Shown: positions 5,722 through 59,565 of the stretch, piece by piece
How the letters are laid out: each line of letters starts with the position of its first letter
Position numbering within the stretch: the stretch's first letter is position 1
Assembly (NCBI GenBank): GCA_944341075.1
Contig: CALVLV010000004.1
Coordinates: forward strand, 3,829 to 67,828
DNA from: an uncultured Clostridia bacterium
GTDB lineage: Bacteria > Bacillota > Clostridia > Christensenellales > Borkfalkiaceae
Reading direction: 5' to 3'
DNA length: 64,000 nucleotides
Program-made: the position numbers and the translations under genes
Notes under the pieces: model-generated
Database searches by the model: none
Told to the model about the DNA's origin: nothing
What the model saw: the letters and a program-made list of their open reading frames with translations, nothing else

Positions 5722-5763
5722 TCACGAAATTTTAGTTTTGGCCGAAAACTAAAATTTCCGTGA
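5722..5763. repeat. H hairpin copy 1 (42-nt palindrome)
   Basis: TCACGAAATTTTAGTTTTGGCCGAAAACTAAAATTTCCGTGA. Begins 4 nt after the rnj stop. Confidence 0.9.
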
Positions 5764-6086
5764 GCTTGAGAAACCAGGGTCTCGTGCGGCGTGCGGTAAA
5801 TTACCGCCGCACTCGGTCACCGCTCGCACTTTGCACTTTGTGCTCGCTCATTTCACAACACGCAAACAGCGCGTATGTGCTGTTTGCAGAAATGTGTTGT
5901 TCAACTCTTCGCGCGACTTTTAAGGGCCCACGAATATATAGTCGCGCGAATTCCCTTCCGGTGCGCGAGGGCTTTTGCCCGCTGCCCTGCCGAGGGTTCC
6001 CTTCGGGAAACGGCAGAACTCGCTTGCGCGACAAATTGGGTCGCGCTGGCGCAGGGGAACCCTGCTTGCGCCGTAATTTATTTAAT
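5764..6086 (-). repeat. Composite interspersed repeat, type I long form (H-proximal end on the left)
   Basis: Order on the + strand: M2 GAGAAACCAGGGTCTC (5768-5783), then core hairpins (5784-5905). The core hairpins are GTGCGGCG..CGCCGCAC and GCAAACAGC-GCGTATGT-GCTGTTTGC. Next come the L hairpin (5908-5952), GC-rich stems (5953-6072) and the AT-rich terminus GTAATTTATTTAAT (6073-6086). Positions 5768-6040 match the reverse complement of 40961-41233 with only 6 mismatches by my hand alignment. Confidence 0.9.
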
Positions 6087-6107
6087 ATAATTTCACACTT
6101 TCCGCAC

Positions 6108-6176
6108 GCGCCCTTGCCTCCCTTGCCAAAGGAAGGTGGCTTAACTGAACAAAGTGAAGTTAAGTCGGTGGGATTT
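6108..6176 (+). repeat. X module copy 1
   Basis: GCCTCCCTTGCCAAAGGAAGGTG, then the hairpin GCTTAAC..GTTAAGT, then CGGTGGGATTT. Same architecture as 24097-24173, and in reverse at 40827-40909, 54484-54552 and 59108-59188. Confidence 0.7.
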
Positions 6177-6220
6177 TTTGTGTTGCTATGTTTTTCAAAC
6201 TATTGTTCATATAATAATAT

Positions 6221-6868
6221 ATGGAAAATTTTTCTTACGCGCACCGCGATACTTCGGGCATGGCAAGGTGGAACACGCCGCGCATACCCGAAAGCCTTCA
6301 GGCCGTGCGCCAAAGCGCTTTCGGGCGCGAGATACCCATATCGGGCGATGAAACGCTGTCGTTTTTAATGGCTCAGGCGGCGGCGATAAAGCCTGATAGC
6401 ATACTCGAACTTGGCACGGCGGTGGGCGTAACTTCTGCCGCAATGCTGCTTGCATGCCCTGCGGCGCAGCTTACCACCGTAGAGCGCGACCATGCATTTT
6501 TTGAAGAGGCAAAAAATACCTACCATATGTGCGGCCTGCAGAGCAGGGTGCGCGCAATAGAGGGCGACGCGGGCGAAGTTATATATGCGCTCAGCGGCCC
6601 CTTCGATATGATATTTTTAGACTGCGCCAAGGTGCAGTACGTAAAGTACCTGCCCCGCTTAAAGCAGCTGTTAAGTGCTGGCGGCGTGCTGATCGCAGAC
6701 GACGTGCTGCTGTACGGCTGGGCGAGCGGCGAGGCCGAAGTGCCCAAAAAGCGCCGCATGCTGGCAAAGCACATAGAGGAGTACCTTGTTGCAGTCACGT
6801 CCGATCCCGAACTTTTCACCTCGGTGATAAAGGTGGGCGACGGCATTGCCCTTTCGGTAAAGCGCTGA
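6221..6868 (+). CDS. Class I SAM-dependent O-methyltransferase, YrrM/TrmR-like
   Basis: 215 aa with ILELGTAVGVTS (SAM motif I), DMIFLDCAK and GGVLIADDVLLYGW. The size and motifs fit family-3 O-methyltransferases. A U32 peptidase gene follows, as in B. subtilis yrrM-yrrNO. Confidence 0.8.
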   Translation: MENFSYAHRDTSGMARWNTPRIPESLQAVRQSAFGREIPISGDETLSFLMAQAAAIKPDSILELGTAVGVTSAAMLLACPAAQLTTVERDHAFFEEAKNTYHMCGLQSRVRAIEGDAGEVIYALSGPFDMIFLDCAKVQYVKYLPRLKQLLSAGGVLIADDVLLYGWASGEAEVPKKRRMLAKHIEEYLVAVTSDPELFTSVIKVGDGIALSVKR

Positions 6869-6940
6869 GCGCATATTATTTTGTATGTGGCGCATGCGCC
6901 TGCCTTTCGCGGCTTTGCCTATACAACTGTATTTTTGAAC

Positions 6941-8143
6941 ATGAAGAACGTTGAACTACTTGCCCCCGCGGGCAACTTTTCAAAACTTAAAACTGCCGTA
7001 TATTTCGGCGCGGACGCCGTATACTTAGGAGGAAAAGACTTTTCCCTTCGCTCGTTTGCCGACAACTTTTCGCGCGAGGAGCTTGTGCAGGCGGTAGAGT
7101 ACGCGCATGCGCTGGGCAAAAAGGTGTATGTCACCGTGAACATATACGCCCGCAACGCCGACCTTGCAAATATGGAGGACTATTTTGCCTTTCTGCAGTC
7201 GGCGGGGGCAGACGCGGCGCTCATCTCCGACCCCGGCGTGCTGTATGCCGCAAAAAAGGCGGCGCCCGAACTTGCCGTGCATATCTCCACCCAGGCCAAC
7301 GTAACCAACAAGTACGCCGTAAAATTCTGGCATGAACAGGGCGCAGAGCGCGCCGTGCTCGCCCGCGAACTTTCGCTTGCAGAGATTGCAGAAATACACG
7401 ACTTTGTGCCCGAAATGCAGCTTGAGGCCTTTGTTCACGGCGCAATGTGCATATCTTATTCGGGCAGGTGCCTGCTTTCCGACTATCTTGCGGGCAGGCC
7501 CTCCAACCGCGGCGAGTGTGCGCAGGCGTGCCGCTGGAACTATGCCGTGAGAAAGAGCGACGATAAGAGCGACAGCGGCTGGCTGCCGCTGGAAGAGGAC
7601 GAAAGGGGCGCATATATATTCAATTCAAAGGATCTGAATATGTCTGCCCACCTTGAAGATATGGCCGCCGCGGGCGTGTGCTCCTTCAAGATAGAGGGGC
7701 GCATGAAGAGCGAATATTACCTTGCCACCGTTATAAACGCCTACCGCAGGTGCATAGACGGCGGCTTTACGTCCGAGGTCGAGCGCGAGCTTTTGACCGC
7801 CGCCCACCGCGACTATACCACGGCCTACGCCCTCGGCGAAAATCATGCCACGGTAAACTATTCCAACAGCCAGACCAAGGGCGACTGCGACTACATAGGC
7901 AACGTTCTCGGCTATAAAGGCGGCTTTGCAAAGATAGAGATGCGCGGCCGCTTCTATGCGGGCGATACGCTGGAAGTGCTCTCCCCTACAGATAACTTTG
8001 GCAAGAGCTTTAAGGTGGAGGAGGTGTACGACTCGGAGGGAGTGCCCGTTTCCGACTGCAAGCGCGTGCAGGAGATATACTCAGTGCGCTGTCCCTATGC
8101 GCTTTCGGCAGGCGATATCGTCCGCCGAAGAAAACAGGCGTAA
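6941..8143 (+). CDS. Peptidase U32 family protein (TrhP/YrrO-like)
   Basis: MKNVELLAPAGNFSKLKTAVYFGADAVYLGG is the canonical U32 N-terminus, and the Cys-containing segment GECAQACRW is present. The ORF is open from 6881, but U32 proteins start at the M-x-x-ELLAPAG position, so ATG 6941 is preferred. Confidence 0.85.
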   Translation: MKNVELLAPAGNFSKLKTAVYFGADAVYLGGKDFSLRSFADNFSREELVQAVEYAHALGKKVYVTVNIYARNADLANMEDYFAFLQSAGADAALISDPGVLYAAKKAAPELAVHISTQANVTNKYAVKFWHEQGAERAVLARELSLAEIAEIHDFVPEMQLEAFVHGAMCISYSGRCLLSDYLAGRPSNRGECAQACRWNYAVRKSDDKSDSGWLPLEEDERGAYIFNSKDLNMSAHLEDMAAAGVCSFKIEGRMKSEYYLATVINAYRRCIDGGFTSEVERELLTAAHRDYTTAYALGENHATVNYSNSQTKGDCDYIGNVLGYKGGFAKIEMRGRFYAGDTLEVLSPTDNFGKSFKVEEVYDSEGVPVSDCKRVQEIYSVRCPYALSAGDIVRRRKQA

Positions 8144-8271
8144 GCTTTGGCAATTTTTTAATCGGGTGTGCGCGCACACATGTGCACGCATGCGCATTTA
8201 TGCAAAAGGGCGGCACATATGCCGCAAATAACGTTGGTTTATGCCGCGTTCAGACCAATAAAAGGTGTGTT

Positions 8272-12046: not shown

Positions 12047-12238
12047 GTAAAATTAAATTAATAAAAGTCGCAAGGCGGGTTTCCCGCCGCAGCAGGCCCC
12101 CATTTGCGCATACCTGCGCCTCAGCAGGGTGAATGGCGAAGATTATATAATCGTAGGCCCTTAAGTATCTTCGCCAGAGGGGCTGGCCCTTAAAAGTCAC
12201 GAAATTTTTCGTTTTCGGCCAAAACGAAAAATTTGTGA
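12047..12238 (+). repeat. Composite interspersed repeat, type I short form
   Basis: AT-rich terminus AAAATTAAATTAAT (12049-), stem GGCGGG-TTT-CCCGCC (12075-12089) and L hairpin (12131-12175; stem GGCGAAGAT/ATCTTCGCC, loop TATATAATCGTAGGCCCTTAAGT). These are followed by the G palindrome (12177-12191) and H (12197-12238). It is the mirror image of 21628-21815. Confidence 0.9.
12197..12238. repeat. H hairpin copy 2
   Basis: TCACGAAATTTTTCGTTTTCGGCCAAAACGAAAAATTTGTGA. Confidence 0.9.
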
Positions 12239-12344
12239 ATAATATTAAATGGTCGCGCGCGAGTGCAAACAAAGGGCGGAATATGTATAACTTCTGCTTA
12301 TACCAAGCATAAAAAGTTGCTAAATTCAATGGTGTTCATATCGT

Positions 12345-21618: not shown

Positions 21619-21627
21619 AAAAAGTTT

Positions 21628-21669
21628 TCACAAATTTTTCGTGCGGGCCGCGCCCGAAAAATTTCGTGA
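21628..21669. repeat. H hairpin copy 3
   Basis: TCACAAATTTTTCGTGCGGGCCGCGCCCGAAAAATTTCGTGA. Begins 9 nt after the stop at 21618. Confidence 0.9.
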
Positions 21670-21815
21670 GTTTGGGAGAGCCAGCTCTCCCTTGCCACGA
21701 TTTTTTAAGGGCCCCCGATAATATAATCGGGGCAATTCCCTCTTTGGTGAGCCTGCTGACCGCAGCAAATTGGGTCTTGCGGCGGCGGGAAACCCGCCTT
21801 GCAAACGTAAATTGT
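21670..21815 (-). repeat. Composite repeat, type I short form (mirror of 12047-12196)
   Basis: G palindrome GGGAGAGCCAGCTCTCCC (21674-21691), reversed L hairpin (21692-21738), the GCGGCGGGAAACCCGCC stem, and the terminus ..GTAAATTG. Confidence 0.85.
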
Positions 21816-21827: not shown

Positions 21828-21865
21828 TTGTCATTTCGACCGAGCGACAGCGAGTGGAGAAATCT
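21828..21865 (+). repeat. S module copy (TTGTCATTTCGACCGAGCG..GGAGAAATCT)
   Basis: TTGTCATTTCGACCGAGCGACAGCGAGTGGAGAAATCT. The same module occurs at 26810, 35969, 40717, 49917, 54261 and in reverse elsewhere. Confidence 0.85.
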
Positions 21866-21877
21866 ATTCCGCAATAC

Positions 21878-23886: not shown

Positions 23887-23896
23887 AAATATATGT

Positions 23897-23938
23897 TCAC
23901 AATTTTTTCGGTCGGGCCGCGGCCGAAAAAATTCGTGA
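23897..23938. repeat. H hairpin copy 4
   Basis: TCACAATTTTTTCGGTCGGGCCGCGGCCGAAAAAATTCGTGA. Begins 10 nt after the stop at 23886. Confidence 0.9.
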
Positions 23939-24084
23939 GTTTAAGAAACCAAGTTTCTCTTCGCGCGACCTCTAAGTGCCCACGATTGTATAGTCGCGCG
24001 AATTCACTTCCGGTGAGCCCGCTTGCGCGGCAAATTGTGTCGCGCTGGCGCAGGGGAACCCTGCTTGCGCACATAATTTATTTG
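23939..24084 (-). repeat. Composite repeat, type I without the core insert
   Basis: M2 AAGAAACCAAGTTTCTC is followed directly by the reversed L hairpin (23960-24004). Next come GC stems GCGCGGCAAATTGTGTCGCGC and GCGCAGGGGAACCCTGCTTGCGC, then the terminus ACATAATTTATTTG. Compared with 5764-6086, the 122-nt core is absent exactly at the M2/L junction. Confidence 0.85.
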
Positions 24085-24096: not shown

Positions 24097-24173
24097 CTTA
24101 ATCGTGCCTCCCTTAATAAGGGAGGTGCCTTAAGTGAATAAAATGAAGTTAAGGCGGTGGGATTTAAATCCCC
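24097..24173 (+). repeat. X module copy 3
   Basis: TTAATCGTGCCTCCCTTAATAAGGGAGGTGCCTTAAGTGAATAAAATGAAGTTAAGGCGGTGGGATTT. Confidence 0.8.
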
Positions 24174-24175
24174 CT

Positions 24176-25616: not shown

Positions 25617-25708
25617 GTTTGTTGTTGCATAAGGGGCAGACTTTTCCCCTTACCTTACAAAATTTTACGGCGATACCTGCCCGCAGAATTTTGTGAAAGG
25701 AGTTTTAT

Positions 25709-26444: not shown

Positions 26445-26486
26445 TCACGAAATTTTACGCCTGGCCGAGTCGTAAAATTTCCGTGA
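26445..26486. repeat. H hairpin copy 5
   Basis: TCACGAAATTTTACGCCTGGCCGAGTCGTAAAATTTCCGTGA. Begins 7 nt after the stop at 26437. Confidence 0.9.
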
Positions 26487-40565: not shown

Positions 40566-40609
40566 ATTTCACCTCACAAAAATTCCCGCCTTGTGTGACG
40601 GGAATTGTT

Positions 40610-40618
40610 TGTGGATAA
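40610..40618 (-). promoter_or_regulatory. Perfect DnaA box (TTATCCACA on the minus strand)
   Basis: TGTGGATAA on the + strand. Next to it lie the tandem ATGTTGTTTTAT x2 (40627-40650) and the AT-rich tract 40619-40660. It is the only perfect box I found in 40566-42935. Confidence 0.5.
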
Positions 40619-40660
40619 CTTTTTTAAATGTTGTTTTATATGTTGTTTTATGTATTATTT

Positions 40661-40706
40661 AAGGCATATATGCGGGGCAATTTTAAAAGTGATGAGTGAT
40701 GAGCGG
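40661..40706 (+). repeat. Q module (GCATATATGC palindrome + CAATTTTAAAAGT + GATGAGTGATGAG)
   Basis: AAGGCATATATGCGGGGCAATTTTAAAAGTGATGAGTGATGAGCGGG. A longer version lies at 49783-49890. Confidence 0.75.
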
Positions 40707-40716
40707 GCTGCGTCCG

Positions 40717-40820
40717 TTGTCATTTCGACTAAGCGAATGTAATGAGCGCATGGAGAAATCTCTTTGCTTTGCCGCATTTCTTGAGATTTCTCCACTCGCT
40801 GATGCTCGGTCGAAATGACA
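40717..40820. mobile_element. Inverted pair of S modules (104-bp hairpin / MITE-like unit)
   Basis: TTGTCATTTCGACTAAGCGAATGTAATGAGCGCATGGAGAAATCTC, a 20-nt centre, then GAGATTTCTCCACTCGCTGATGCTCGGTCGAAATGACA. The termini are perfect inverted repeats (GTCATTTCGAC/GTCGAAATGAC). Confidence 0.75.
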
Positions 40821-40826
40821 GTGAAA

Positions 40827-40909
40827 GAGATTTTTGTAAATCCCACCGACACGCCCTCGCTACGCTCGTGCGTATCACCTCCCTTAATAAGGGAGGCACG
40901 ATTAAGGAA
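40827..40909 (-). repeat. X module copy 4
   Basis: GAGATTTTTGTAAATCCCACCGACACGCCCTCGCTACGCTCGTGCGTATCACCTCCCTTAATAAGGGAGGCACGATTAAGGAA. Confidence 0.8.
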
Positions 40910-40914
40910 AAATT

Positions 40915-41279
40915 TTTTAAATAATCAATGTTTCAAGCAAGGTTTCCTTGCGCAGAAAGACACAATTTGTCGCGTGAGCGAGTTCTGCCGTTTCCCGAAG
41001 GGAACCCTCGGCAGGGCAGCGGGCAAAAGCCCTCGCGCACCGGAAGTGAATTCGCGCGACTATATATTCGTGGGCTCTTAAAAGTCGCGCGAAGAGTTGA
41101 ACAACACATTTCTGCAAACAGCACATACGCGCTGTTTGCGTGTTGTGAAATGAGCGAGCACAAAGTGCAAAGTGCGAGCGGTGACCGAGTGCGGCGGTAA
41201 TTTACCGCACGCCGCACGAGACCTTGGTTTCTCAAAATCACGAATTTTTTCGGGCGCGGCCCGAACGAAAAAATTGTGA
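40915..41279 (+). repeat. Composite repeat, type I long form, including H copy 6 (41238-41279)
   Basis: Terminus TTTTAAATAATCAATGTT, GC stems, L hairpin (41048-41093), core (41097-41217), M2 GAGACCTTGGTTTCTC and H TCACGAATTTTTTCGGGCGCGGCCCGAACGAAAAAATTGTGA. Positions 40961-41233 are the inverted near-identical twin of 5768-6040. Confidence 0.9.
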
Positions 41280-41282
41280 AAA

Positions 41283-41404
41283 ATTTTAAAATAATTAATG
41301 CCGAAAAAATGCAAAGCGGAATTTACTTCCGCTGTTAAGCATTTTTACGACTTACCTAAACCTCACGGCGGAAGATTTTTGCATCGCAAAAAGATTTCGC
41401 GTGA
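41283..41404 (+). repeat. T module plus H copy 13 (41363-41404)
   Basis: TTTTAAAATAATTAATGCCGAAAAAATGCAAAGCGGAATTTACTTCCGCTGTTAAGCATTTTTACGACTTACC, then TCACGGCGGAAGATTTTTGCATCGCAAAAAGATTTCGCGTGA. The same T sequence occurs at 54383-54463. H ends 2 nt from the dnaA stop codon. Confidence 0.85.
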
Positions 41405-41406
41405 AC

Positions 41407-42935: not shown

Positions 42936-44021
42936 ATGCAGATAAAAAATTTGACGCTTAAAAATTTCAGAAACTACGCCGATGAAAATTTTGAGTTTAC
43001 CGAAGGGCTCAACGTGCTCTACGGCAAAAACGCGCAGGGCAAAACCAACTGTGCGGAGGCGGTGTTTTACCTCTGCACGGGCGTTTCTCCGCGCGCCCGC
43101 CGCGAAAAACAGCTGATAATGCACGGCAAGCAGCGCGCCGACATATCTGCCACCGCCTGCGGCAGGTACGGCGACGTGAACATTGCCGCCACCATCTTTG
43201 AAAACGGGCGCGAGATCCGCATAAACGGCAACCGCATAGCGCGCAACGCCGACCTTTTGGGCAACATATTCAGCATCTTTTTTTCGCCTTCGGAACTGCG
43301 CCTTATCCAGGACGGGCCCGACGAGCGCAGGCGGTTTTTGAACATATCCATATCGCAGCTGTCAAAGCCATACTACACGGCGCTGTTGCGCTATAACAAG
43401 ATACTGGAACAGCGCAACAACCTGTTAAAGGACAGGGATACCGGCCTCATCTACGACACCCTGCCCGTGTGGGACGAACAGCTTGCAAAGTATGCCGCCA
43501 TAGTCGTGCGCCACCGCGCCGACTATATCGCCCGCCTGGCGCCCGTTGCGGAGGAGGAGCACTACCGCCTTACCGACGGCGCCGAAAAACTTGTCGTCCG
43601 CCCAGAAAAGAGGTACGATGGCGACGACGAGGAGCTTAAGGAGCAGCTGTTTGAAGAGCTGCGGCGCAATTACGAGCGCGACGTGCGGCTGGGCTACACG
43701 AGCATCGGCCCCCACCGCGACGACCTCGACTTTCTCATCAACGGGCAAGACGCCAAAAATTTTGCCTCGCAGGGGCAGACGCGCACGGCCGCCCTTTCGG
43801 TAAAGCTTGCCGAAATGGAGATATTCAAACAGCTTTCGGGCGAATATCCCGTGCTCATCCTCGACGACGTGATGAGCGAGCTCGACCTTCCCCGCCGCAA
43901 AAAGCTGGTGGAGCGCGCCCAGGGCATGCAGACCATACTCACCTGCACGCACGCCGAGCGCGTGCTGTACGGCAGGCAGACCAACAAAATACGCATAGAG
44001 GGGGGTGCCATAAAGCGATGA
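42936..44021 (+). CDS. recF: DNA replication and repair protein RecF
   Basis: LTLKNFRNY, GKNAQGKTNCAEA (Walker A), the SMC-like signature SQGQTRTAALS and ILDDVMSELD (Walker B). Confidence 0.9.
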   Translation: MQIKNLTLKNFRNYADENFEFTEGLNVLYGKNAQGKTNCAEAVFYLCTGVSPRARREKQLIMHGKQRADISATACGRYGDVNIAATIFENGREIRINGNRIARNADLLGNIFSIFFSPSELRLIQDGPDERRRFLNISISQLSKPYYTALLRYNKILEQRNNLLKDRDTGLIYDTLPVWDEQLAKYAAIVVRHRADYIARLAPVAEEEHYRLTDGAEKLVVRPEKRYDGDDEELKEQLFEELRRNYERDVRLGYTSIGPHRDDLDFLINGQDAKNFASQGQTRTAALSVKLAEMEIFKQLSGEYPVLILDDVMSELDLPRRKKLVERAQGMQTILTCTHAERVLYGRQTNKIRIEGGAIKR

Positions 44022-47721: not shown

Positions 47722-47846
47722 AAACGCTTTTGATAAGCGGCGCAATACTGTGTCGCGTTTACGGGTATGTTCGGTCACTTACCTCAAAGTAAGCTTCCTC
47801 ACATCTTCCGCACGCTCCTTGTCTTGCTTGCTTCTGAAAAGCGTAT
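47722..47846. repeat. Long imperfect hairpin related to the core module
   Basis: AAACGCTTTTGATAAGC (47722-47738) pairs with GCTTCTGAAAAGCGTAT (47830-47846). The interior TCGGTCACTTACCTCAAAGTAAGCTTCCTCAC resembles the TCGGTCACCGC-hairpin-CTCATCTCAC segment of the type I core. Confidence 0.45.
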
Positions 47847-47924: not shown

Positions 47925-48076
47925 AAAATTAATAAAATTAAATTAATCTAATTTGCGCAAGCAGGGTGAATTTGCCCCAATTATACTATATGAGAGCCCT
48001 TAAGATTGGGGCAAGGGGGAGCTGGCTCCCCAAAATCACGAAGATTTTACGGCGGCACCAGCCGCAAAATCTGTGA
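47925..48076 (+). repeat. Composite repeat, type I short form, including H copy 7 (48036-48076)
   Basis: AT-rich terminus AAAATTAATAAAATTAAATTAATCTAATT, GCGCAAGCAGGGTGAAT, and the L hairpin (47968-48014; stem GCCCCAATT/GATTGGGGC). These are followed by G GGGGAGCTGGCTCCCC (48016-48031) and H TCACGAAGATTTTACGGCGGCACCAGCCGCAAAATCTGTGA. H ends 9 nt before the plsX ATG. Confidence 0.9.
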
Positions 48077-48085
48077 GGTATTTTG

Positions 48086-49117
48086 ATGATTAAAATTTTA
48101 GTTGACGCAATGGGCGGCGACAATGCGCCCGCCGCGCCTGTAGAGGGCGCCGTAAAGGCCCTTGAGGCCGATAATGAAGTTTACCTCATTCTTGCAGGAA
48201 AGCAGGAAGTAATTGAGGAAGAGCTGAAAAAATACACGTACGATAAGTCCCGCATAGAGATAATGGACTGCCGCGACGTGATAGACATGAACGATATCCC
48301 CACCGAGGCCATACGCAAGAGCGAATCGTCGCTCGTAAAGGCTTTCCGTGCGCTCAAGGCGCAGGAAGATATCGCAGGCCTGGTCACGGCAGGTTCCACG
48401 GGTGCCACAATAGCCGCAGGCCAGCTGCTTCTGGGCAGAATACGCGGCATAAAGCGCCCCGCGCTCTGCCCCGCCATACCAAACATACGCGGCGGGTATA
48501 CTCTGCTGTGCGACTGCGGCGCCAATGCCGAGTGCAAGCCCTCTATGCTCTGCCAGTTTGCAGTGCTCGCCTCTGCCTATGCCGAGGCAGGTTTCGGCAT
48601 AAAGAACGCCAAAGTGGGCCTTTTGAATAACGGCACCGAAGAGCACAAGGGCGACCCCCTGCACCAGCAGACATACCAGCTGTTGAAGAAGATGGACGTT
48701 ATAAACTTCGGCGGCAACATCGAAGGGCGCGACATAATGATAGGCGACTGCGACGTTGCCGTGGCCGACGGCTTTTCGGGCAATATCGCCCTCAAGTCTA
48801 TCGAGGGGTGCGGCAAGCTGATACTCTCCGTGCTCAAAAAGGAGGCTACAAGTTCGCTCTCCTCAAAGATAGGCAGCCTGTTTTTAATGAAGGGCTTCAA
48901 GCGCATGCGCTCCCGCCTCGATTTCGAGGCCGTGGGCGGCGCCCTTCTCCTCGGCGTAAAAAAGGTGGTAATAAAGAGCCACGGCTCCTCAAAGGCGCGC
49001 ACTATAACCGCCGCCGTGCAGAATGCCGCCGCCATATACCGCGGCAACCTTATAGGCAAGGTGGAAAGCATGCTCGCCTCTGTCGACTGGAACAACCTCA
49101 TACCCAAAGATGAGTGA
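48086..49117 (+). CDS. plsX: Phosphate acyltransferase PlsX
   Basis: MIKILVDAMGGDNAP and the conserved GFSGNIALKS. The start is ATG 48086, since 48083 is a TTG one codon upstream. Confidence 0.93.
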   Translation: MIKILVDAMGGDNAPAAPVEGAVKALEADNEVYLILAGKQEVIEEELKKYTYDKSRIEIMDCRDVIDMNDIPTEAIRKSESSLVKAFRALKAQEDIAGLVTAGSTGATIAAGQLLLGRIRGIKRPALCPAIPNIRGGYTLLCDCGANAECKPSMLCQFAVLASAYAEAGFGIKNAKVGLLNNGTEEHKGDPLHQQTYQLLKKMDVINFGGNIEGRDIMIGDCDVAVADGFSGNIALKSIEGCGKLILSVLKKEATSSLSSKIGSLFLMKGFKRMRSRLDFEAVGGALLLGVKKVVIKSHGSSKARTITAAVQNAAAIYRGNLIGKVESMLASVDWNNLIPKDE

Positions 49118-49754
49118 AATAAGCGCAAAAGAGCTTGCCATTATCGAAAGGGAGCTCGGCTACAAATTTAAAGACAGGCAGCTTCTGGCGCTTGCGCTCA
49201 CCCATTCGTCGGCGTCCCATTCGCGCAACTACGAGCAGCTGGAGTTTTTGGGCGACTCGGTAATTCAGCTTATAGTCACGCACTTTTTATACAAAAAGGG
49301 CGGCAGCGAGGGCGAAATGACGGCGCAGCGGCAAAAACTTGTGTCGCACGCTCCGCTCAAGTGCGCGTCGGAAGAACTGCACCTGCCCGAACACATAGTA
49401 AAGGGCGTGCCCGACGTGGGCGAAAAGGCGCTGTCTTCTGTATACGAGGCGGTGTGCGGCGCGGTGTTTTCAGATGGCGGCTATGCCGCCGCAGAGCAGT
49501 TCGTTACGCGTACGCTGCTCGCCGCGCACATCTCTGCGCCCCGCAACTACAAGGGCGACCTGCAGGAGTATGTGCAGGGCAAGGGAGAGGATCTGCCCGA
49601 ATACAACACAGGCCGCAGCGGCGGCACTTCAAACAAGCCCGAATTTGTGTGTAACGTAATAGTGTGCGGCAAGAGCTTTACGGGCACGGGAGGAAGCAAG
49701 GCCGAGGCCGAGCGCAACGCCGCTAAAAGCGCCCTAAAAAGCCTTAAAAAGTGA
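49110..49754 (+). CDS. rnc: Ribonuclease III
   Basis: LALTHSSA, the NYEQLEFLGDSV signature, and the C-terminal dsRBD (KAEAERNAAKSAL). There is an 8-nt overlap with plsX. Confidence 0.93.
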   Translation: MSEISAKELAIIERELGYKFKDRQLLALALTHSSASHSRNYEQLEFLGDSVIQLIVTHFLYKKGGSEGEMTAQRQKLVSHAPLKCASEELHLPEHIVKGVPDVGEKALSSVYEAVCGAVFSDGGYAAAEQFVTRTLLAAHISAPRNYKGDLQEYVQGKGEDLPEYNTGRSGGTSNKPEFVCNVIVCGKSFTGTGGSKAEAERNAAKSALKSLKK

Positions 49755-49916: not shown

Positions 49917-50085
49917 TTGTCATTTCAGCTTGGCGCATTTATATGTCATTGACGCTATTGCGCCTACGGCGAACAATAGCTATTCCGTCGCTTCGCTCCT
50001 TACGACCGAGCGGCAGCGAGTGGAGAAATCTCAAAATAAGAGATCTCTCCATGCGCTCATTACATTCGCTTAGTCGAGATGATAG
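49917..50085. mobile_element. Inverted S-long / S pair (MITE-like)
   Basis: The left part contains TGTCATTGACGCTATTGCGCCTACGGCGAACAATAGCTATTCCGTCGCTTCGCTCCTTACGACCGAGCGGCAGCGAGTGGAGAAATCTC, which matches the reverse complement of 59276-59370. The right part, AGATCTCTCCATGCGCTCATTACATTCGCTTAGTCGAGATGA, matches the reverse complement of the S copy at 40722-40762. Confidence 0.7.
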
Positions 50086-50205: not shown

Positions 50206-50509
50206 TTACTTATGTGCGCAAGGCGAATTTAGTTCGCCGTTAAGCGGTCGCCTCGTGCCTCGTTGGTCGGCTCCGCAACGCCTCACGCTTTGCTCGGCAT
50301 GTTGCGGTTTCTCCGCGGCACACGAACAGCGGGTATCCGCTGTTCTACAGAACGTGCCGCTCGTCCCTATTTGCTGCGGTCAGCAGGCTCACCAAATGGG
50401 GAATTGCCCCAATTATAATATAAGAGAGCCCCTGAAATTGGGGCAAGGGGGAGCTGGCTCCCCTAAATCACGGAAAAAGATTTGCGTCACCAGCAAAGAT
50501 TTTTCGTGA
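50199..50509 (+). repeat. Composite repeat, type II, including H copy 8 (50468-50509)
   Basis: Terminus TTTAAAATTACTTATGT, V module (50250-50400, ~90% identical to 54777-54927), L hairpin (50401-50446), G (50447-50463) and H TCACGGAAAAAGATTTGCGTCACCAGCAAAGATTTTTCGTGA. H ends 13 nt before the smc ATG. Confidence 0.9.
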
Positions 50510-50522
50510 ACAAGGTCATTTT

Positions 50523-54172: not shown

Positions 54173-54227
54173 GCTTCCGTCGCCTGCGGCTCCTTACGAC
54201 CGAGCGATAGCGAGTGGAGAAATCTTG
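54173..54227 (+). repeat. S-long module, 3' part
   Basis: CCGTCGCCTGCGGCTCCTTACGACCGAGCGATAGCGAGTGGAGAAATCTTG. It is preceded by the X-like CCTTCCCC-AGCCAA-GGGGAGG hairpin (54153-54172). Confidence 0.7.
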
Positions 54228-54260
54228 AAAAATCCCTCAGTCAGGCTGTTGCCTGTCAGT

Positions 54261-54361
54261 CGTCATTTCGACTGTAGCGAACGAAGTGAGCGGAATGGAG
54301 AAATCTCGTTGTTTTTTATTGAGATTTCTCCGCGCGGGCTTTGCCCTTGGTCGAAATGACA
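54261..54361. mobile_element. Inverted pair of S modules (101-bp hairpin / MITE-like unit)
   Basis: CGTCATTTCGACTGTAGCGAACGAAGTGAGCGGAATGGAGAAATCTC-GTTGTTTTTTATT-GAGATTTCTCCGCGCGGGCTTTGCCCTTGGTCGAAATGACA. Confidence 0.75.
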
Positions 54362-54382: not shown

Positions 54383-54486
54383 AAATTTTAAAACAAATAA
54401 TGCTGAAAATTGCAAAGCGGAATTTACTTCCGTTGTTAAGCAATTTTACGGCTTACCGTAAAATCACGGCGGAAGATTTTTGCAAA
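54383..54486 (+). repeat. T module plus truncated H (copy 14, left arm only)
   Basis: AAAATTTTAAAACAAATAATGCTGAAAATTGCAAAGCGGAATTTACTTCCGTTGTTAAGCAATTTTACGGCTTACCGTAAAA, then TCACGGCGGAAGATTTTTGCA. This runs directly into the AAATCCCACC end of an X module, the same junction as at 40827 and 59108. Confidence 0.8.
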
Positions 54487-54552
54487 TCCCACCGCCGCGG
54501 CCTGCGGTCGCGTCACCTCCCTTTGACAAGGGAGGCACGAATAAGGAAAGAT
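54484..54552 (-). repeat. X module copy 5
   Basis: CAAATCCCACCGCCGCGGCCTGCGGTCGCGTCACCTCCCTTTGACAAGGGAGGCACGAATAAGGAAAG. Confidence 0.8.
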
Positions 54553-55034
54553 TTAAAATAATTTATGTTTGCAAGGCGGGGTCTTGCCGCCATCAAGGTA
54601 AAACATGGCGGTTTTGCGGTTTCCCAAAGGGAACCCTCCGCAAAGTAGCGTCGCTTGCGCTCCTCACGCGGTCACCGCAAACGCAAGTCATATGCGTTTG
54701 CTCATCTCACTTCACCACGCACAACGGGTGTCCGTTGTGCTATGAAATGGCTCGTTCGTCCCGCCGCCGCAAGTTCGCCTCGTATCCTCGTTGGTCGGCT
54801 CCGCAACGCCTCACGCTTTGCTCGGCATGTTGCGGTCTCTCCGCGGCACACGAACAGCGGGTGTCCGCTGTTCTATTGGGCGTGCCGCTCGTCTCAATTT
54901 GCTGCGGCCAGCAGGCTCACCAAGGGTGAATTTGCGCAATTATATAACCGAGGGCATTTAAGATTGCGCAAAGAGGGGCTGGCCCCTTAACATCACGAAA
55001 TTTTTCGCGCTCGGCCAGCACGAAAAAATTGTGA
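54551..55034 (+). repeat. Composite repeat, type II long form, including H copy 9 (54993-55034)
   Basis: Terminus ATTTAAAATAATTTATGTT, GC stems, and a core variant (54655-54760; GCAAACGCA..TGCGTTTGC and GCACAACGG-GTGT-CCGTTGTGC). These are followed by V (54777-54927), L (54928-54971; stem GCGCAAT/ATTGCGC), G (54975-54986) and H TCACGAAATTTTTCGCGCTCGGCCAGCACGAAAAAATTGTGA. H ends 14 nt before the ftsY ATG. Confidence 0.9.
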
Positions 55035-55048
55035 AAAAGGTATATTGT

Positions 55049-55945: not shown

Positions 55946-55978
55946 CTGTAAAACAGTAGCTTAAAGGAATTACATTGC

Positions 55979-56527: not shown

Positions 56528-56590
56528 TTTTTATTTGAAATTTGTTTTGTTGCAGTTAAAGTATATGGCTGTATAGATTATAAAAAGTGA

Positions 56591-56624
56591 GTGCGGGCGG
56601 CGCAGTTGCGCCGCCCGCACTTTT
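56591..56624 (+). terminator. Rho-independent terminator of maa
   Basis: GTGCGGGCGGCGCA-GT-TGCGCCGCCCGCAC followed by TTTT. Confidence 0.85.
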
Positions 56625-56766: not shown

Positions 56767-57340
56767 CAAACTCACGAAATTTTTCGGGCGCGGCCCGCAC
56801 GAAAAATTTGTGAACCCTTTTTCCCGCCGTAAAGTTCAGCGCGGCAGCCCGCGCATAAAGAACTTTACAAGGAATAACTTTTCGCAACAGCAAGTTTAAA
56901 ACAAATTGTGCCGAAAAAGTGCAAGGACGAGCAACACATTTCTGCAAACAGCACATACGCGCTGTTTGCGTGTTGCGAGATGAGCAAAAGCATATTAAAA
57001 GCTTTTGCGGTGACCGAATGCGGCGGCAATATACCGCATGCCGCATGAGAAGATTTAGTTCAACCGTTAAGCACTTTTACGACTTACCGTAAAATCACGG
57101 AAAAAGATTTTTGCGTAGCAAAAAGATTTTTCGTGAACGTTTAAAATAATTAATGTGCGCAAGCAGGGTTTCCCTGCGATAGCGCGACTACATTTGCGGC
57201 GAAAGCCGGCTCACCGGAAGTGAATTCGCGCGACTGCATAATCGTGGGCCCTTAAAGGTCGCGCGAAGAGAAACTTGGTTTCTCAAACTCACGAAATTTT
57301 TCGGGCGCGGCCCGCACGAAAAATTTGTGAACCCTTTTTT
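56767..57340. repeat. 574-bp composite of repeat modules flanked by 56-nt perfect direct repeats
   Basis: Order: H copy 10 (56772-56813), U (56819-56901), reversed core (56926-57047, with M3 stem ATGCGGC../..GCCGCAT at 57018-57046) and a T tail (57053-57094). Next come H copy 12 (57095-57136, TCACGGAAAAAGATTTTTGCGTAGCAAAAAGATTTTTCGTGA) and a type I element (terminus 57139-, L 57222-57267, M2 GAGAAACTTGGTTTCTC). H copy 11 (57289-57330) closes the unit. CAAACTCACGAAATTTTTCGGGCGCGGCCCGCACGAAAAATTTGTGAACCCTTTTT occurs identically at 56767-56822 and 57285-57340. Confidence 0.85.
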
Positions 57341-57432
57341 ACAAATCATCCGCATCTTGCCGGGGCATTCCGCCGTCTGCCGCTACACCCGTGTAGCTGC
57401 CGTCGGGGTCTGATTTGCTGAAAAAGTCCGGC

Positions 57433-57516
57433 TTACTTGCAGTTTTTGGGCTGCTTGTTGTTGCCGCAGTTTTTCTGCTTGTTGTTTTCACCTGAATTAC
57501 CATTAGTCTTTTTCAT
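57433..57516 (-). CDS. Candidate 27-aa Lys/Asn-rich peptide with two Cys (MKKTNGNSGENNKQKNCGNNKQPKNCK)
   Basis: Its ATG overlaps the rubrerythrin TGA (ATGA), and AAGGAG lies 8 nt upstream. There is an internal duplication NNKQ(K/P)KNC. It is not in the supplied ORF track because it is too short. It could be a chance ORF. Confidence 0.35.
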   Translation of the reverse strand: MKKTNGNSGENNKQKNCGNNKQPKNCK

Positions 57517-58109: not shown

Positions 58110-58197
58110 ATCTGCCCTCCGTAAAAGTATTTTGGGCAGCTTTGCGTGCATTATTCGGTCTAACAGTGCCTTATTTTTCCTTTTTTGGCGTCCGTGC

Positions 58198-58226
58198 TTG
58201 CCCGTCGGCGTGCAGTGTGGTATAAT
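58198..58226 (+). promoter_or_regulatory. Sigma-A promoter
   Basis: TTGCCC, a 17-nt spacer, then TATAAT with TGg (extended -10). It lies 24 nt upstream of the 58250 CDS. Confidence 0.65.
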
Positions 58227-58249
58227 GGCGGTAAGGGAGGGGATGTGTC

Positions 58250-58636: not shown

Positions 58637-58687
58637 TTGCCCCGCACATATGCCTTAAATAATGTACATTTTTTATAATATAGAAAT

Positions 58688-58720
58688 GCGCGCAGTGCGG
58701 CATTTTGCCGCGCTGCGCGC
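58688..58720. terminator. Bidirectional terminator between convergent genes
   Basis: GCGCGCAGTGCGGC-ATTTT-GCCGCGCTGCGCGC, with A/T-rich flanks. Confidence 0.7.
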
Positions 58721-58775
58721 ACTTTAAAAGATTATTGTTTTTTAAAGAGCGGCACATATGCCGCAACGATTCGTT

Positions 58776-59057
58776 TTATGCGGCAAGATACAGGTAGGCA
58801 AGCACCAGTGCAAAGCCCTGCCATGCCAGGCCGGCTACGTTGGCGGCGATAAACGCGGGCTTGCGGAATTTGTGATGGAATATCATCATGCCGAGTATTC
58901 CGCCCACAGCCCCGCCGAGCAAGGAGAGGAGTATCAGCGTTATTTCGGGCACGCGCCATGTGCCCTTTATTGCGGCAAACTTGTCTTTGCCGTACAGTAT
59001 AAAGTTTATAAGCGATATGGCGCCCGCTATGGCGCAGATAATTATAAATGCAGTCAT
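58776..59057 (-). CDS. DUF1294-family small membrane protein
   Basis: MTAFIIICAIAG..YGKDKFAAIKGTWRVPEITLILLSLLGGAVGGILGMMIFHHKFRK matches the DUF1294 pattern as I recall it. The upstream part of the track ORF (to 59198) runs through repeat module X. Confidence 0.7.
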   Translation of the reverse strand: MTAFIIICAIAGAISLINFILYGKDKFAAIKGTWRVPEITLILLSLLGGAVGGILGMMIFHHKFRKPAFIAANVAGLAWQGFALVLAYLYLAA

Positions 59058-59107
59058 CGGATTCTGCCCCCCTGTCCGGCTGAAATAACAAAGGCGCTCA
59101 AAATGCG

Positions 59108-59188
59108 GAAAGATTTTCGCAAATCCCACCGGGTAGCCCTCGCTAAAGTTCGTGCTACCCACCTCCCTTTGGCAAGGGAGGCACGATT
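59108..59188 (-). repeat. X module copy 6
   Basis: GAAAGATTTTCGCAAATCCCACCGGGTAGCCCTCGCTAAAGTTCGTGCTACCCACCTCCCTTTGGCAAGGGAGGCACGATTGCGG. Confidence 0.8.
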
Positions 59189-59238
59189 GCGGTGACAATT
59201 CCTCAGTCTTGCTGTCGCTTACGCTTTCGCAAGATAGC

Positions 59239-59370
59239 TCCCTTAATGCTCGCGCATTAAAGGAGCCTTTAGTGTGGAATAGATTTCTCCGTTCGCTTCG
59301 CTCGGTCGTAAGGAGCGAAGCGACGGAATAGCGATTGTTCGCACGAAGTGCGCAATCGCGTCAATGACAA
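59239..59370 (-). repeat. M6 hairpin and S-long module (reverse orientation)
   Basis: TCCCTTAATGC-TCGC-GCATTAAAGGAGCC, then GGAATAGATTTCTCCGTTCGCTTCGCTCGGTCGTAAGGAGCGAAGCGACGGAATAGCGATTGTTCGCACGAAGTGCGCAATCGCGTCAATGACA. The internal stem is CGCTTCGCTC/GAGCGAAGCG. Confidence 0.8.
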
Positions 59371-59565
59371 ATTTTTTTAAATAATGAACGTTTCAAGCAG
59401 GGTTCCCCTGCGCAGAAAGACCCAATTTGTCGCGTAAGCGAGCTCACCAAAGGGGGAATGACTGCAATTGTATAATAAGTGAGCACTTAAAAATTGCAGT
59501 CAGGGGGAGCTGGCTCCCCCAAAGTCACGAAGATTTTACGGCGGCACCAGCCGTAAAATCTGTGA
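59371..59565 (+). repeat. Composite repeat, type I short form, including H copy 15 (59525-59565)
   Basis: Terminus ATTTTTTTAAATAATGAACGTT, CAAGCAGGGTTCCCCTGCG and the L hairpin (59456-59501; stem GACTGCAATT/AATTGCAGTC). These are followed by G GGGGGAGCTGGCTCCCCC (59503-59520) and H TCACGAAGATTTTACGGCGGCACCAGCCGTAAAATCTGTGA. H ends 4 nt from the radA stop codon. Confidence 0.9.

Follow-up and report, generated by a model that had tools for sequence, protein, structure and literature searches.

A polar modular repeat whose terminal hairpin adjoins stop codons and Shine-Dalgarno sequences in gut Clostridia

Results

Copies of the hairpin and their gene neighbourhood

The window, by which we mean the whole 64,000-nt stretch of DNA analysed, carries among others rnj, dnaA, radA, a rubrerythrin operon, a likely operon lysS-plsX-rnc-smc-ftsY, and a gene for a GXGXG protein preceded, likely in the same operon, by a pyridine-nucleotide oxidoreductase gene (24384-25616). 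A palindromic hairpin, here called H, recurs between these genes. Sequence reading combined with a covariance model (CM) yielded 14 full copies and one half copy, as an earlier note on this DNA had counted, together with one degenerate copy (Table 1). The arm 15-mer TCACGAAATTTTTCG had 8 matches at up to 2 mismatches against 0.25 expected, and none of 100 shuffles reached 8. Units containing H occur in the window at a density of ~1 per 4-5 kb.

Table 1. Copies of H in the window, with strand and setting
Copy	Position	Strand	Setting
H, A type	5722-5763	-	4 nt past rnj stop; outer end of long composite ~5722-6095; CM unit 5719-5822
H, A type	12197-12238	+	ends unit 12127-12241; outer end faces start of GS-III gene, 245 nt off
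H, A type	21628-21669	-	9 nt past stop of glutamate synthase FMN-domain gene (gltB-FMN); unit 21625-21742
H, A type	23897-23938	-	10 nt past stop of Fe-S protein gene; unit 23894-24009
Degenerate H	25655-25696	+	TTAC...GTGA, without bulge; P2-like hairpin upstream; directly 5' of Shine-Dalgarno of GXGXG gene, 12 nt ahead of its ATG
H, A type	26445-26486	-	7 nt past stop of GXGXG gene; outer end of long composite
H, A type	41238-41279	+	outer end of long composite ~40930-41279; AT-rich far end of next composite follows directly
H, C type (TCACGGCGGAAGATTTTTGC...)	41363-41404	+	2 nt from dnaA stop (dnaA on - strand)
H, B type (GAAGATTTT...AAAATCT, 2-nt GA bulge)	48036-48076	+	touches plsX Shine-Dalgarno (GTGAGGT), 9 nt ahead of plsX ATG; unit 47964-48079
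H, C type	50468-50509	+	13 nt ahead of smc ATG; unit 50397-50512
Half H	54464-54484	+	truncated; 5' arm of C-type H
H, A type	54993-55034	+	14 nt ahead of ftsY ATG; unit 54924-55037
H, A type	56772-56813	+	upstream P2 degenerate, no other module; same sequence as copy 57289
H, C type	57095-57136	+	far end of next unit follows directly
H, A type	57289-57330	+	ends best-scoring unit 57218-57333; full short-form element ~57138-57333; outer end faces 3' end of rubrerythrin operon (~100 nt to small ORF, 182 nt to rbr)
H, B type	59525-59565	+	4 nt from radA stop (radA on - strand); unit 59452-59568

Architecture of the repeat unit

H is no autonomous 42-nt palindrome. It closes a conserved unit that has a fixed orientation and measures at least 115 nt, and it forms the hairpin at the outward-facing end of a polar modular repeat of roughly 115-200 nt. 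The core unit of ~115 nt reads GGTGAAT, a P6 stem whose loop is conserved, then AGAG, P2 (also a hairpin), the linker CAAA(A/C), H, and finally A(C), which is conserved just outside the GTGA of H. The linker between P2 and H is unpaired, 4-7 nt long and C-rich in some species. A short full form of ~200 nt adds two more hairpins and an AT-rich end, long forms of ~350 nt contain extra hairpin modules, and a GTGAA motif appears again at the hpB-P6 junction. The CM recovered 12 strong units from the window alone and 117 once the 71 loci were added to it, with P6, P2 and the junction sequences strongly conserved across genera; the repeat had no match in Rfam. Both H subtypes named earlier, AAATTTTTCG and AGATTTT, are present, and a third type, TCACGG(A/C)(A/G)(A/G)AAGATTTTTGC, was found. 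The resulting subfamilies A, B and C are discrete and co-occur across genera.

Position and polarity at gene ends

In the window, the nearest CDS boundary is at most 15 nt away for 10 of the 16 copies of H, compared with 8.2% of random non-coding positions (binomial p = 7e-8). The earlier note also gave ten, a number that is reached when the degenerate copy ahead of the GXGXG gene is counted, and the reported distances from H to the stops of rnj, gltB-FMN, the Fe-S gene, the GXGXG gene, dnaA and radA and to the ATG codons of plsX, smc and ftsY were all recovered, with the ORFs confirmed by Pfam. Across the family, 65 of 103 units have the outer end of H no more than 20 nt away from a CDS boundary (46 at stops, 19 at Shine-Dalgarno sequences or starts), compared with 5 of 101 for the P6 end, 5 of 63 for the far end and 10% of random non-coding positions. 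Thus the closeness of H to CDS boundaries and its place as the gene-proximal end of composites, both claimed from this one stretch, hold as general rules for the family in many genomes.

The start-side copies touch the Shine-Dalgarno sequence (e.g. GTGA|GGAGG..ATG), and ~30% of boundary copies stand directly 5' of it. A polarity is also visible within the hairpin: the bulge is on the gene-distal arm and the unbulged arm points toward the gene in 57 cases against 3 (p ~1e-14), the three exceptions being spurious ORFs inside composites. H is also found at cistron borders inside the likely operon lysS-plsX-rnc-smc-ftsY and between the pyridine-nucleotide oxidoreductase and GXGXG genes.

Fold and covariation

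The helix of H comprises 16-19 bp with an AT-rich base and a GC-rich top, and its folding energy is -13 to -17 kcal/mol (z-scores -2.3 to -6.1). Every well-formed copy has a conserved bulge of 1-2 nt (G, or GA in the AGATTTT subtype) or a G·T wobble next to the terminal 4-bp TCAC/GTGA helix, and many copies contain an internal mismatch as well, so that the perfect ~19-bp duplex of the earlier note does not describe H. Its other statement on the fold, that the centre varies and yet stays self-complementary, stood up: among 78 distinct copies, double changes occur at 8 of the 15 pairs of H. All three stems of the unit covary strongly, with double changes at 27 of 29 pairs and 96.1% of cells paired against 70% after shuffling, and none of 500 shuffles reached the observed values. 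G·U pairs are rare and the fold is equally good on both strands, which fits a palindrome acting at the DNA level as well as an RNA used in both orientations. Complementarity of the arms could also come from template switching on DNA, without selection on structure.

Spread, shared sites and turnover

The family was found in Christensenellales-type gut Clostridia including Ca. Coproplasma, Borkfalkia, Gallimonas and Christensenella. Orthologous H sites are shared by several genera past the rnj stop, past the dnaA stop (also in loci L017 and L035), before smc (also L052), before ftsY (also L019 and L066) and at both ends of the GXGXG gene, several of them despite a protein identity of only 55-75%. 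The 5' copy at the GXGXG gene, degenerate in the window, is well formed in the orthologous copy in L050, and at the 3' end L050 has an H at the same position with a different inner stem. On the other hand, a congener with ~94% amino-acid identity has no H past the stop of gltB or that of the Fe-S gene, in the Fe-S case Ca. Coproplasma stercorigallinarum (L050). Copies are thus gained and lost between species, and yet certain orthologous gene ends keep theirs from genus to genus.

Modules have been swapped between strains whose flanks are ~99% identical; the B-type H ahead of plsX, for example, is replaced by an A-type H in strain L004. A 517-nt segment bounded by the identical H copies at 56772 and 57289 is present in some strains and absent from others, and inverted pairs of units fill whole intergenic regions in L019, L062, L066, L096 and L116. 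Exchange among the copies, by recombination or gene conversion, both homogenises and reshuffles them. The polarity marked by the bulge, the spread over several genera, the conservation at orthologous gene ends and the recombination between copies had all gone unseen in the earlier note.

Discussion

The roles first considered for H, namely targeted insertion at gene ends, a 3' stabiliser or processing site, and translation control, stand as possibilities. Because H is 1-20 nt away from a stop, or sits immediately 5' of a Shine-Dalgarno sequence where a promoter would not fit, it presumably belongs to the transcript of the neighbouring gene. We tentatively propose that the family is a mosaic repeat of the REP/BIME kind in which H is transcribed together with the gene and caps mRNA ends, a reading to which we give slightly less than an even chance. 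As a terminal hairpin H would protect the RNA, capping the 3' end where it follows a stop and the 5' end where it precedes a Shine-Dalgarno sequence. The unpaired linker and the bulge, always gene-distal, lie on the side where an endonuclease would most naturally separate H from the other modules, and copies inserted the other way round would give coding RNA without a cap and be lost. At the repeat itself, neither a promoter or terminator signature nor a transposase was found. A role as mRNA stabilisers has been proposed for REPs. However, a hairpin 1-4 nt past a stop would be melted by the terminating ribosome, and E. coli REPs that near to a stop lower expression rather than raise it. If H alone were of value to the host, the strong conservation of P6, P2 and the junctions across genera would be left unexplained; that conservation speaks for selection acting on the element itself or for concerted evolution.

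A non-autonomous selfish element moving as single-stranded DNA, by means of an HUH/Y1 transposase (RAYT or IS200/IS605 type) or another recombinase, seems rather unlikely, although it carries an appreciable probability. H would then be the recognition hairpin of the enzyme, the bulged G would mark the active strand, and the nearness to gene ends would result from a preference for certain insertion sites together with purifying selection, with no host function. The high copy number, the discrete subfamilies shared among genera, the presence/absence differences between close species, and the conservation of the whole unit, loops and junctions included, all agree with this, as do the conserved A(C) outside GTGA, the repeated GTGAA at the hpB-P6 junction and the conserved extrahelical base on one arm, a feature by which IS608 TnpA and integron integrases distinguish strands. 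New copies could arise by a hairpin-specific transposase or by recombination alone. However, no pair of empty and filled sites with clean element boundaries was found, and recombination between copies explains every polymorphism seen. No recurrent ORF accompanies H in the 71 loci, the viral contigs searched contained no copies, and a tblastn search of 1.13 Mb, a weak test, gave no match to IS200 TnpA or E. coli RAYT. H is also present at one end of the unit only, the far-end hairpin being unrelated to it and the far end lacking a conserved target sequence, and several sites are common to different genera.

It seems improbable that H is a processing site of RNase III, as the earlier note specifically proposed. 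In that case transcripts that are polycistronic or read through would be cut where one gene borders the next, in the manner of the sites in phage T7 early mRNA or the Correia elements of Neisseria. The helix with its conserved asymmetric bulge and the placement at cistron borders, likely operons included, speak for such a site, and in T7 asymmetric internal loops direct single-strand cuts by RNase III so that the upstream RNA keeps its hairpin. However, RNase III usually needs a helix of roughly 20 bp, and that of H is at or below this length and broken by the bulge and often by a mismatch too. A double-strand cut would take the hairpin away and leave unprotected ends, and RNase III sites offer no sequence signature to look for here. 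The presence of rnc in the window, previously cited in support, is uninformative, because almost all bacteria have this gene.

Still less can be said for H and its linker as a weak one-way transcription terminator or insulator, to which we assign a low probability. Read from the gene side, the hairpin would be followed by (G/U)UUUG, CAAA(A/C) giving a short U-run on the opposite strand, whereas reading from the inside gives AC and transcription would pass; the polarity rule is compatible with such a one-way block. Against this, the U-run is just 3-4 nt and becomes a G-run with the C-rich linker of some species, and the stem base is AT-rich and bulged. In the stretch of 40.5-60 kb a terminator scan picked one H in the required orientation (48072-48042), the single copy to reach its criteria, and terminator-like sites there were no commoner than in shuffles (39 vs 31.9 ± 5.2), while canonical terminators with a GC stem and T-run exist elsewhere in the window, e.g. 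at 56590-56621. Finally, it is very unlikely that H serves as an operator, bound as double-stranded DNA by a dimeric CRP/FNR/Rex-type regulator: the invariant outer arms TCAC(G)AAA...TTTGTGA(A) do resemble the half-sites of these regulators, TGTGA/TCACA, but they are everted (TCAC first, GTGA last) and ~30 bp apart, the variable yet self-complementary centre is of no need to an operator, and H occurs in hundreds of copies by unrelated housekeeping genes, after stops as well as before starts, always accompanied by P2 and P6.

Comparison with known repeats

Several known systems share features with the H family. The subterminal hairpins of IS200/IS605 and PATE are likewise imperfect palindromes with an extrahelical base and one-strand recognition, without terminal inverted repeats or target duplication, but in those elements the two ends carry similar hairpins and insertion takes place 3' of a fixed tetra- or pentanucleotide, while H is at one end with no fixed target visible. 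Integron attC sites are also imperfect palindromes directly after the stop of the preceding ORF, with conserved arms, a variable but paired centre and extrahelical bases that set the recombining strand. H differs in having neither the R''/R' core GTTRRRY nor cassette arrays, in its housekeeping neighbours in conserved synteny, in its association with P2 and P6, and in its occurrence ahead of genes in the opposite relative orientation.

Correia/NEMIS of Neisseria and ERIC of Yersinia, reportedly studied by De Gregorio and colleagues, are co-transcribed repeats of 100-150 bp beside genes with long hairpins; Correia hairpins are cut by RNase III, and ERIC alter mRNA stability according to orientation. 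These are classical MITEs with terminal inverted repeats and target duplications in which the whole element is one hairpin, whereas the H unit has neither and consists of distinct hairpins in a row, with only one of its two ends special. The BOX elements of Streptococcus pneumoniae, also of Firmicutes, are intergenic, ordered boxes A, B and C with stable structure and variable module number. They have no sequence relationship to the H unit, and we know of no reported rule by which one end of BOX adjoins starts or stops, nor of a bulge-marked polarity. REPINs, said to be mobilised by RAYT transposases in the work of Bertels and Rainey, Nunvar, and Ton-Hoang, resemble the family in their hairpin-forming units and compensatory variation between arms, to which the inverted pairs of H units may be compared; however, a REPIN is a REP doublet and H a single long hairpin, and no RAYT gene was seen in the DNA examined.

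Closest are the REP/BIME of Enterobacteria, Pseudomonas and others, which differ from the H family in several respects: H has no unpaired GTAG or CGTC tag, which defines REPs, its stem of 16-19 bp (6-9 bp in REPs) has an AT-rich base, a GC-rich top and a conserved bulge, its mosaic keeps the fixed order P6, P2, H and strong conservation of junctions and loop, its polarity toward the gene is strict with part of the boundary copies before Shine-Dalgarno sequences, and its hosts are Bacillota (Christensenellales), outside the taxa surveyed for REPs, with no RAYT found. Both are short palindromes of imperfect pairing that reach hundreds of copies and are strictly confined to extragenic DNA, and they have in common subfamilies separated by complementary stem changes, strain polymorphism arising from them, and ordered mosaics with other conserved motifs. 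The closeness of palindromic repeats to stops is itself an already described property of REP families, which in proteobacteria lie mostly <20 bp from ORF 3' ends (PMC3733652). The family is best read as a new REP/BIME-like mosaic of extragenic palindromes.

Occurrence of the H hairpin and anatomy of its repeat unit

The 42-nt palindrome H forms the outer hairpin of a polar repeat made of modules; its copies recombine with one another, and H abuts stop codons and Shine-Dalgarno sequences beyond what chance allows. Neither artefact nor chance explains the pattern. The arm 15-mer TCACGAAATTTTTCG occurs eight times in the window with at most two mismatches, against a mean of 0.25 in shuffled sequences, among which a count of eight was never reached. 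Site reading and a covariance model together recovered the 14 full copies and the half copy reported in an earlier note from the sequence alone, and added one degenerate copy; all of them (14 full and 2 partial in 64 kb) are intergenic without exception. Every distance to a stop or an ATG given in that note is correct, and its ten copies within 15 nt of a coding boundary now stand as ten of 16, compared with 8.2% of random non-coding positions under identical scoring (p = 7e-8). The interval of about 100 nt that it had left between H and the rubrerythrin (rbr) operon is explained by a Lys/Asn/Cys-rich ORF of about 27 codons just downstream of rubrerythrin (~57431-57514, minus strand), which appears as a 54-aa gene in other assemblies. 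Pfam searches confirmed the flanking genes as RNase J, the glutamate-synthase FMN domain, the Fe-S protein, the GXGXG protein, DnaA, PlsX, RNase III, SMC, FtsY, rubrerythrin and RadA.

Well-formed copies of H begin with a terminal 4-bp TCAC/GTGA helix, followed by a bulge of 1-2 nt on one arm only (G, or GA in the AGATTTT subtype), then 7-8 A/T pairs, an inner stem and the loop. The inner stem of 4-7 bp differs among copies and remains complementary, in agreement with the variable yet self-complementary centre described earlier. The perfect duplex of about 19 bp proposed at the same time is not found, since every well-formed copy carries either the bulge or a G·T wobble; the wobble, beside an internal loop, replaces the simple bulge in the third 'GGAAAAAGATTTTT' subtype, and the degenerate copy has no bulge. 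Because the bulge lies on one arm, an orientation can be assigned to each H copy. H is never solitary: its bulged side carries a short single-stranded linker, typically CAAA(A/C), after which come a small GC hairpin (P2), an AGAG motif and the P6 stem, which is itself preceded by GGTGAAT and closes a conserved loop of 22-25 nt (ATTATAtAAt..G.GGGC.CTTAAaA). Beyond P6 lie two further hairpins (hpA and hpB) connected by CAATTTGC, and an AT-rich end (..AAATAAt..ACGtGCGCAAG), so that the order far end, hpA, hpB, P6, P2, H is kept in the window and across genera, with extra modules optional; short forms including the AT-rich end measure about 200 nt, and long forms with extra hairpin modules about 350 nt. 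On the unbulged side the GTGA terminus is followed by A (~80%) and C (55-78%). The junction between hpB and P6 (GCTCAC-CGGAA-GTGAAT; 57205-57225 and other units) is a miniature of the TCAC...GTGAA motif at the ends of H, a resemblance which raises the possibility that some factor recognises GTGAA.

Distribution and positional rule

Proteins of the window organism share about 94% identity with their Ca. Coproplasma stercorigallinarum counterparts, and the occurrence of identical proteins on many metagenome contigs marks it as an uncultured gut bacterium. In a scan of one genome per species, palindromic H was present in Ca. Coproplasma, Ca. Borkfalkia, Ca. Gallimonas, Christensenella, Christensenellaceae MAGs and related 'uncultured Clostridia', and some 40 other matches, all in unrelated low-GC genomes, were non-palindromic and attributable to chance. 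A P6-P2-H covariance model built from 44 units identified 117 units in the window and 71 further loci (L-numbers below denote loci of other genomes or strains), and 103 of these units, whose H end could be identified and whose flanks were long enough, were scored for position. The outer end of H lies within 20 nt of a coding boundary in 65 of the 103 (46 stops and 19 starts with a Shine-Dalgarno sequence), compared with 5/101 for the P6 end of those units, 5/63 for the AT-rich far end and 10% for random non-coding positions. The boundary faces the unbulged arm 57 times and the bulged arm three times, and the three exceptions are spurious ORFs within composite elements. Since units occur between unidirectional (39), convergent (10) and divergent (4) gene pairs, the rule is that H abuts a coding boundary and not that H follows genes. 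Back-to-back pairs with their far ends joined, resembling a large inverted dimer, were also seen (L019, L062, L066, L074, L096 and L116); these put H against the gene on either side of the spacer, as at the ftsY start and smc stop of L066.

Almost all intergenic DNA of the window consists of repeat modules, with spacers of up to 400-985 nt, and the coordinates of the other repeats are collected with the H distances in the table. The second family often stands beside H-bearing composites and is sometimes a long inverted pair, MITE-like in look; the third module lies in spacers shared with H composites. The gene dnaN is not adjacent to dnaA.

Features of the window and distances of H copies to coding boundaries
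Feature	Position (nt)	Description
Partial ORF	1-3288	large; acidic E/A/P-rich tandem repeats (families D1-D11); directly upstream of RNase J
RNase J (rnj)	3348-5717	789 aa; long N-terminal extension, catalytic domains from ~residue 257
H after rnj		4 nt downstream of stop
H after gltB		9 nt downstream of stop
H after Fe-S gene		10 nt downstream of stop
H after GXGXG gene		7 nt downstream of stop
H after dnaA		2 nt downstream of stop
H after radA		4 nt downstream of stop
H before plsX		9 nt upstream of ATG
H before smc		13 nt upstream of ATG
H before ftsY		14 nt upstream of ATG
H, degenerate	25655-25696	12 nt upstream of GXGXG ATG
H, half	54464-54484	
Second repeat family	21828-21870, 35969-36011, 40718-40820, 49994-50036, 54188-54336, ~59280-59330	GTCATTTCGAC..GAGCG..GGAGAAATCTC; 40718-40820 is an inverted pair of ~100 nt
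Third repeat module	6110-6180, 24110-24175, 40845-40905, 54495-54550	CCTCCCTTnnnAAGGGAGG then CTTAAnTGAAnAAAnTGAAGTTAAGnCGGTGGGATTT; T-run end terminator-like
Further module	47740-47830	..GTCGC..TTACGG..TTCGxTCAGTCACTTACCTCxAAGTAAGCTxCxTCAC..; also in L050 (Ca. Coproplasma stercorigallinarum), reverse strand ~2455-2550, in a different spacer
dnaA-mnmG spacer	40566-41406	840 nt; two composites
DnaA box	40610-40618	perfect; by AT-rich stretch (~40600-40650)
recF-like gene	42936-44021	divergent from dnaA
RNase III gene	49110-49754	confirmed by Pfam

Shared sites and exchange between copies

Several H sites are shared with other genomes: after the rnj stop with L097 (68% protein identity), after the dnaA stop with L017 and L035 (55%), ahead of smc with L052, ahead of ftsY with L019 and L066, and on both sides of the GXGXG gene with L050. 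At these shared sites, found in different genera, the inner stems, and even the H subtype, differ. In L050, H is absent after the gltB and Fe-S stops, and the Fe-S spacer measures 90 nt there vs 497 nt in the window. The L050 gltB stop codon is overlapped by another palindrome, GGTGAGTGATTTTTGC TGG CAAAAATCACTCACC (reverse strand, ~2395-2430), with arms GTGA...TCAC in the opposite arrangement to H.

Between strains, the B-type H ahead of plsX in the window is replaced by an A-type H in one strain and by a longer composite in others, within flanks that are about 99% identical. After the Fe-S gene, one strain carries a different H, P2 and P6 with an extra module, and identity resumes within a conserved module. 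A 517-nt block between identical direct H copies at 56772 and 57289, in the hexapeptide-rbr spacer, is absent from four strains; the rnj-methyltransferase spacer is unchanged. These differences bear the marks of copies recombining or undergoing gene conversion with one another, and a clean transposition footprint or empty site was not found between strains in the rnj-methyltransferase, lysS-plsX, Fe-S and hexapeptide-rbr spacers.

Pairing, strand and molecule

Among 116 distinct units, 96.1% of alignment cells form standard pairs vs 70% in shuffled controls, in an alignment that was fitted to the model and thus leans towards structure; independent MAFFT/RNAalifold runs recover the same helices. 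Double-sided changes were found in 27 of 29 pairs, none of 500 shuffles matched any observed measure, and sliding the partner columns lowered pairing to 36-57%. The hairpins of the unit are thus maintained, as pairing and double changes exceed those of shuffles and the helices are recovered independently.

On the bulge-bearing strand G·T exceeds A·C solely through the basal G; elsewhere both are rare, and the small excess is unchanged between start and stop contexts. Nor did the strands differ in minimum free energy (p = 0.73 for H alone, p = 0.07 for whole units). Rare G·U and equal folding of the strands fit RNA that folds in both orientations, as would be needed because the transcribed strand differs between stop and start contexts; they are equally compatible with DNA hairpins, and also with arm-to-arm copying at the DNA level without structural selection.

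Candidate identities and proposed function

Rfam yielded no match at gathering thresholds and, at E <= 5, none overlapping H or the unit, and no tRNA or tmRNA genes were found. A sigma-70 promoter was rejected, as on the H-directed strand no -35 stands at the required 16-18 nt from the TATAAT-like motif of the P6 loop, and scanning together with manual reading extended this to the AT-rich far end. The opposite strand of P6 gave two weak 9/12 matches only (TTGCCC/TATAGT and TTGCCC/TATATT), and the scanned region held 17 promoter-like matches, with no excess over shuffles (11.6 ± 3.9 expected). A phage or plasmid origin was dismissed on 17 viral-contig matches, all non-palindromic and due to chance in low-GC DNA, and a link to replication direction was dropped as GC skew and gene orientation fail to define replichores.

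The gap between H and a Shine-Dalgarno sequence is too short to hold a promoter, and that between a stop and H too short to hold a terminator, so that H is probably transcribed together with the neighbouring gene. Coding RNA that ends in a stable hairpin is classically protected from exonucleases, as in the REP stabilisers of E. coli and the 5' stem-loops that stabilise transcripts against RNase J in B. subtilis. The sole conserved single-stranded stretch beside H, and the bulge, always lie on the gene-distal side; cleavage at this linker or bulge would leave the gene RNA capped by H and discard the remaining repeat, and a single rule would then explain the polarity in start and stop contexts alike. 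Our favoured explanation, a polar REP/BIME-like repeat whose H hairpin caps mRNA ends, is proposed tentatively from these sequence features and as a whole falls a little short of an even chance; its repeat half is much firmer than its capping half. In a bolder and rather doubtful version, the unit would be a domesticated 'cistron punctuation' system of Christensenellales, a polar multi-hairpin module at gene borders, in which a dedicated nuclease or RNA-binding protein would recognise H with its bulge and linker, and so define and cap mRNA ends both before and after a gene, by a logic analogous to T7 RNase III sites or mitochondrial tRNA punctuation.

Alternatively, and equally novel, the repeat could be a new class of hairpin-guided mobile DNA homing precisely to the boundary between coding and non-coding sequence, so that the position of H would reflect targeting. 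We consider such an element unlikely, though the strongest competitor of capping. The extrahelical base of H is shared with integron attC sites and IS200/IS605 ends, and H fails the sequence and context criteria of both: its ends are TCAC...GTGAAC without the RYYYAAC...GTTRRRY core sites of attC, and its neighbours are syntenic housekeeping genes (rnj, dnaA, smc, ftsY, plsX and radA) instead of cassette arrays. In DNA from incomplete genomes, no IS200 TnpA or RAYT match was obtained by tblastn (1.13 Mb), and all-against-all ORF clustering over 71 loci yielded syntenic housekeeping clusters only, with no recurrent ORF beside H; both are weak negatives. A MITE was rejected, as the AT-rich far end, followed by a GCAAG hairpin, is unrelated in sequence to the H end and flanking direct repeats are missing. 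The sole conserved flank that could mark an insertion target is the A(C) next to GTGA, with no conservation at the far end.

That H is a specific RNase III site, as the earlier note had suggested, is improbable. RNase III substrates comprise roughly two turns of double-stranded RNA and have no sequence definition; the predicted H helices of 16-19 bp are broken by the bulge and often by a mismatch. Slightly less probable again is a weak one-way terminator. An intrinsic (Rho-independent) terminator, a GC-rich stem with a U-tract directly behind it, was rejected: 3-4 U follow the full hairpin in just one orientation, the T-run 5' and A-run 3' of the GC-rich inner stem pair on both strands and lengthen the stem, a terminator scan picks out a single H copy, and H does not resemble the genuine terminators of the window. 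A double-stranded DNA operator is scarcely credible, as the centre of H varies yet remains self-complementary.

Implications for annotation and assembly

If H does cap or delimit transcripts, it would provide a genome-wide, sequence-recognisable mRNA-end signal in abundant, barely studied gut Clostridia, marking hundreds of genes, dnaA, smc, ftsY and rnj among them. Even without such a role, the repeat gives this lineage its first well-defined superfamily of REP/BIME type, and its built-in polarity marker (the bulge), strict start/stop-abutting rule and clear recombination between copies make it a tractable system for asking whether repeats are parasites, regulators or both. The repeats also generate structural variation between strains. 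Metagenome contigs of the species (L124, L126-L129, L159-L165) often end 100-270 nt outside a gene, inside composites, and the repeats thus systematically break assemblies. Mechanical ORF calls begin inside H or cross composites (GTG at 55031, 40933-41241, 5801-6034 and others), and in annotated genomes the repeats will produce misplaced start codons and spurious 'hypothetical proteins'.

Comparison with REP and BIME elements

Among known elements, the REP/BIME family of proteobacteria comes closest. REPs are short, high-copy extragenic palindromes of 20-40 bp, mostly lying under 20 bp from an ORF 3' end, and their definition includes an unpaired terminal GTAG or CGTC tag and a cognate RAYT (Y1 transposase) gene flanked by the repeats (PMC3733652). 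H is likewise a high-copy extragenic palindrome, at 42 nt on the upper edge of this range, and 46 of 103 units lie within 20 nt of a stop; its complementary stem subfamilies and mosaic arrangement are REP/BIME-like, and, as in BIMEs, palindromic units are combined with other conserved motifs in regular order. However, the 19 units within 20 nt of a start are atypical for REPs, and the ends of H are paired TCAC/GTGA flanked by CAAA(A/C) and A(C), with the GTAG/CGTC tag missing. The H repeat further differs from REP/BIME elements in stem length and conserved bulge, in its fixed P6-P2-H order with conserved junctions and strict polarity, in its sizeable class directly 5' of Shine-Dalgarno sequences, and in host lineage, and its positional rules are sharper than those described for REPs.
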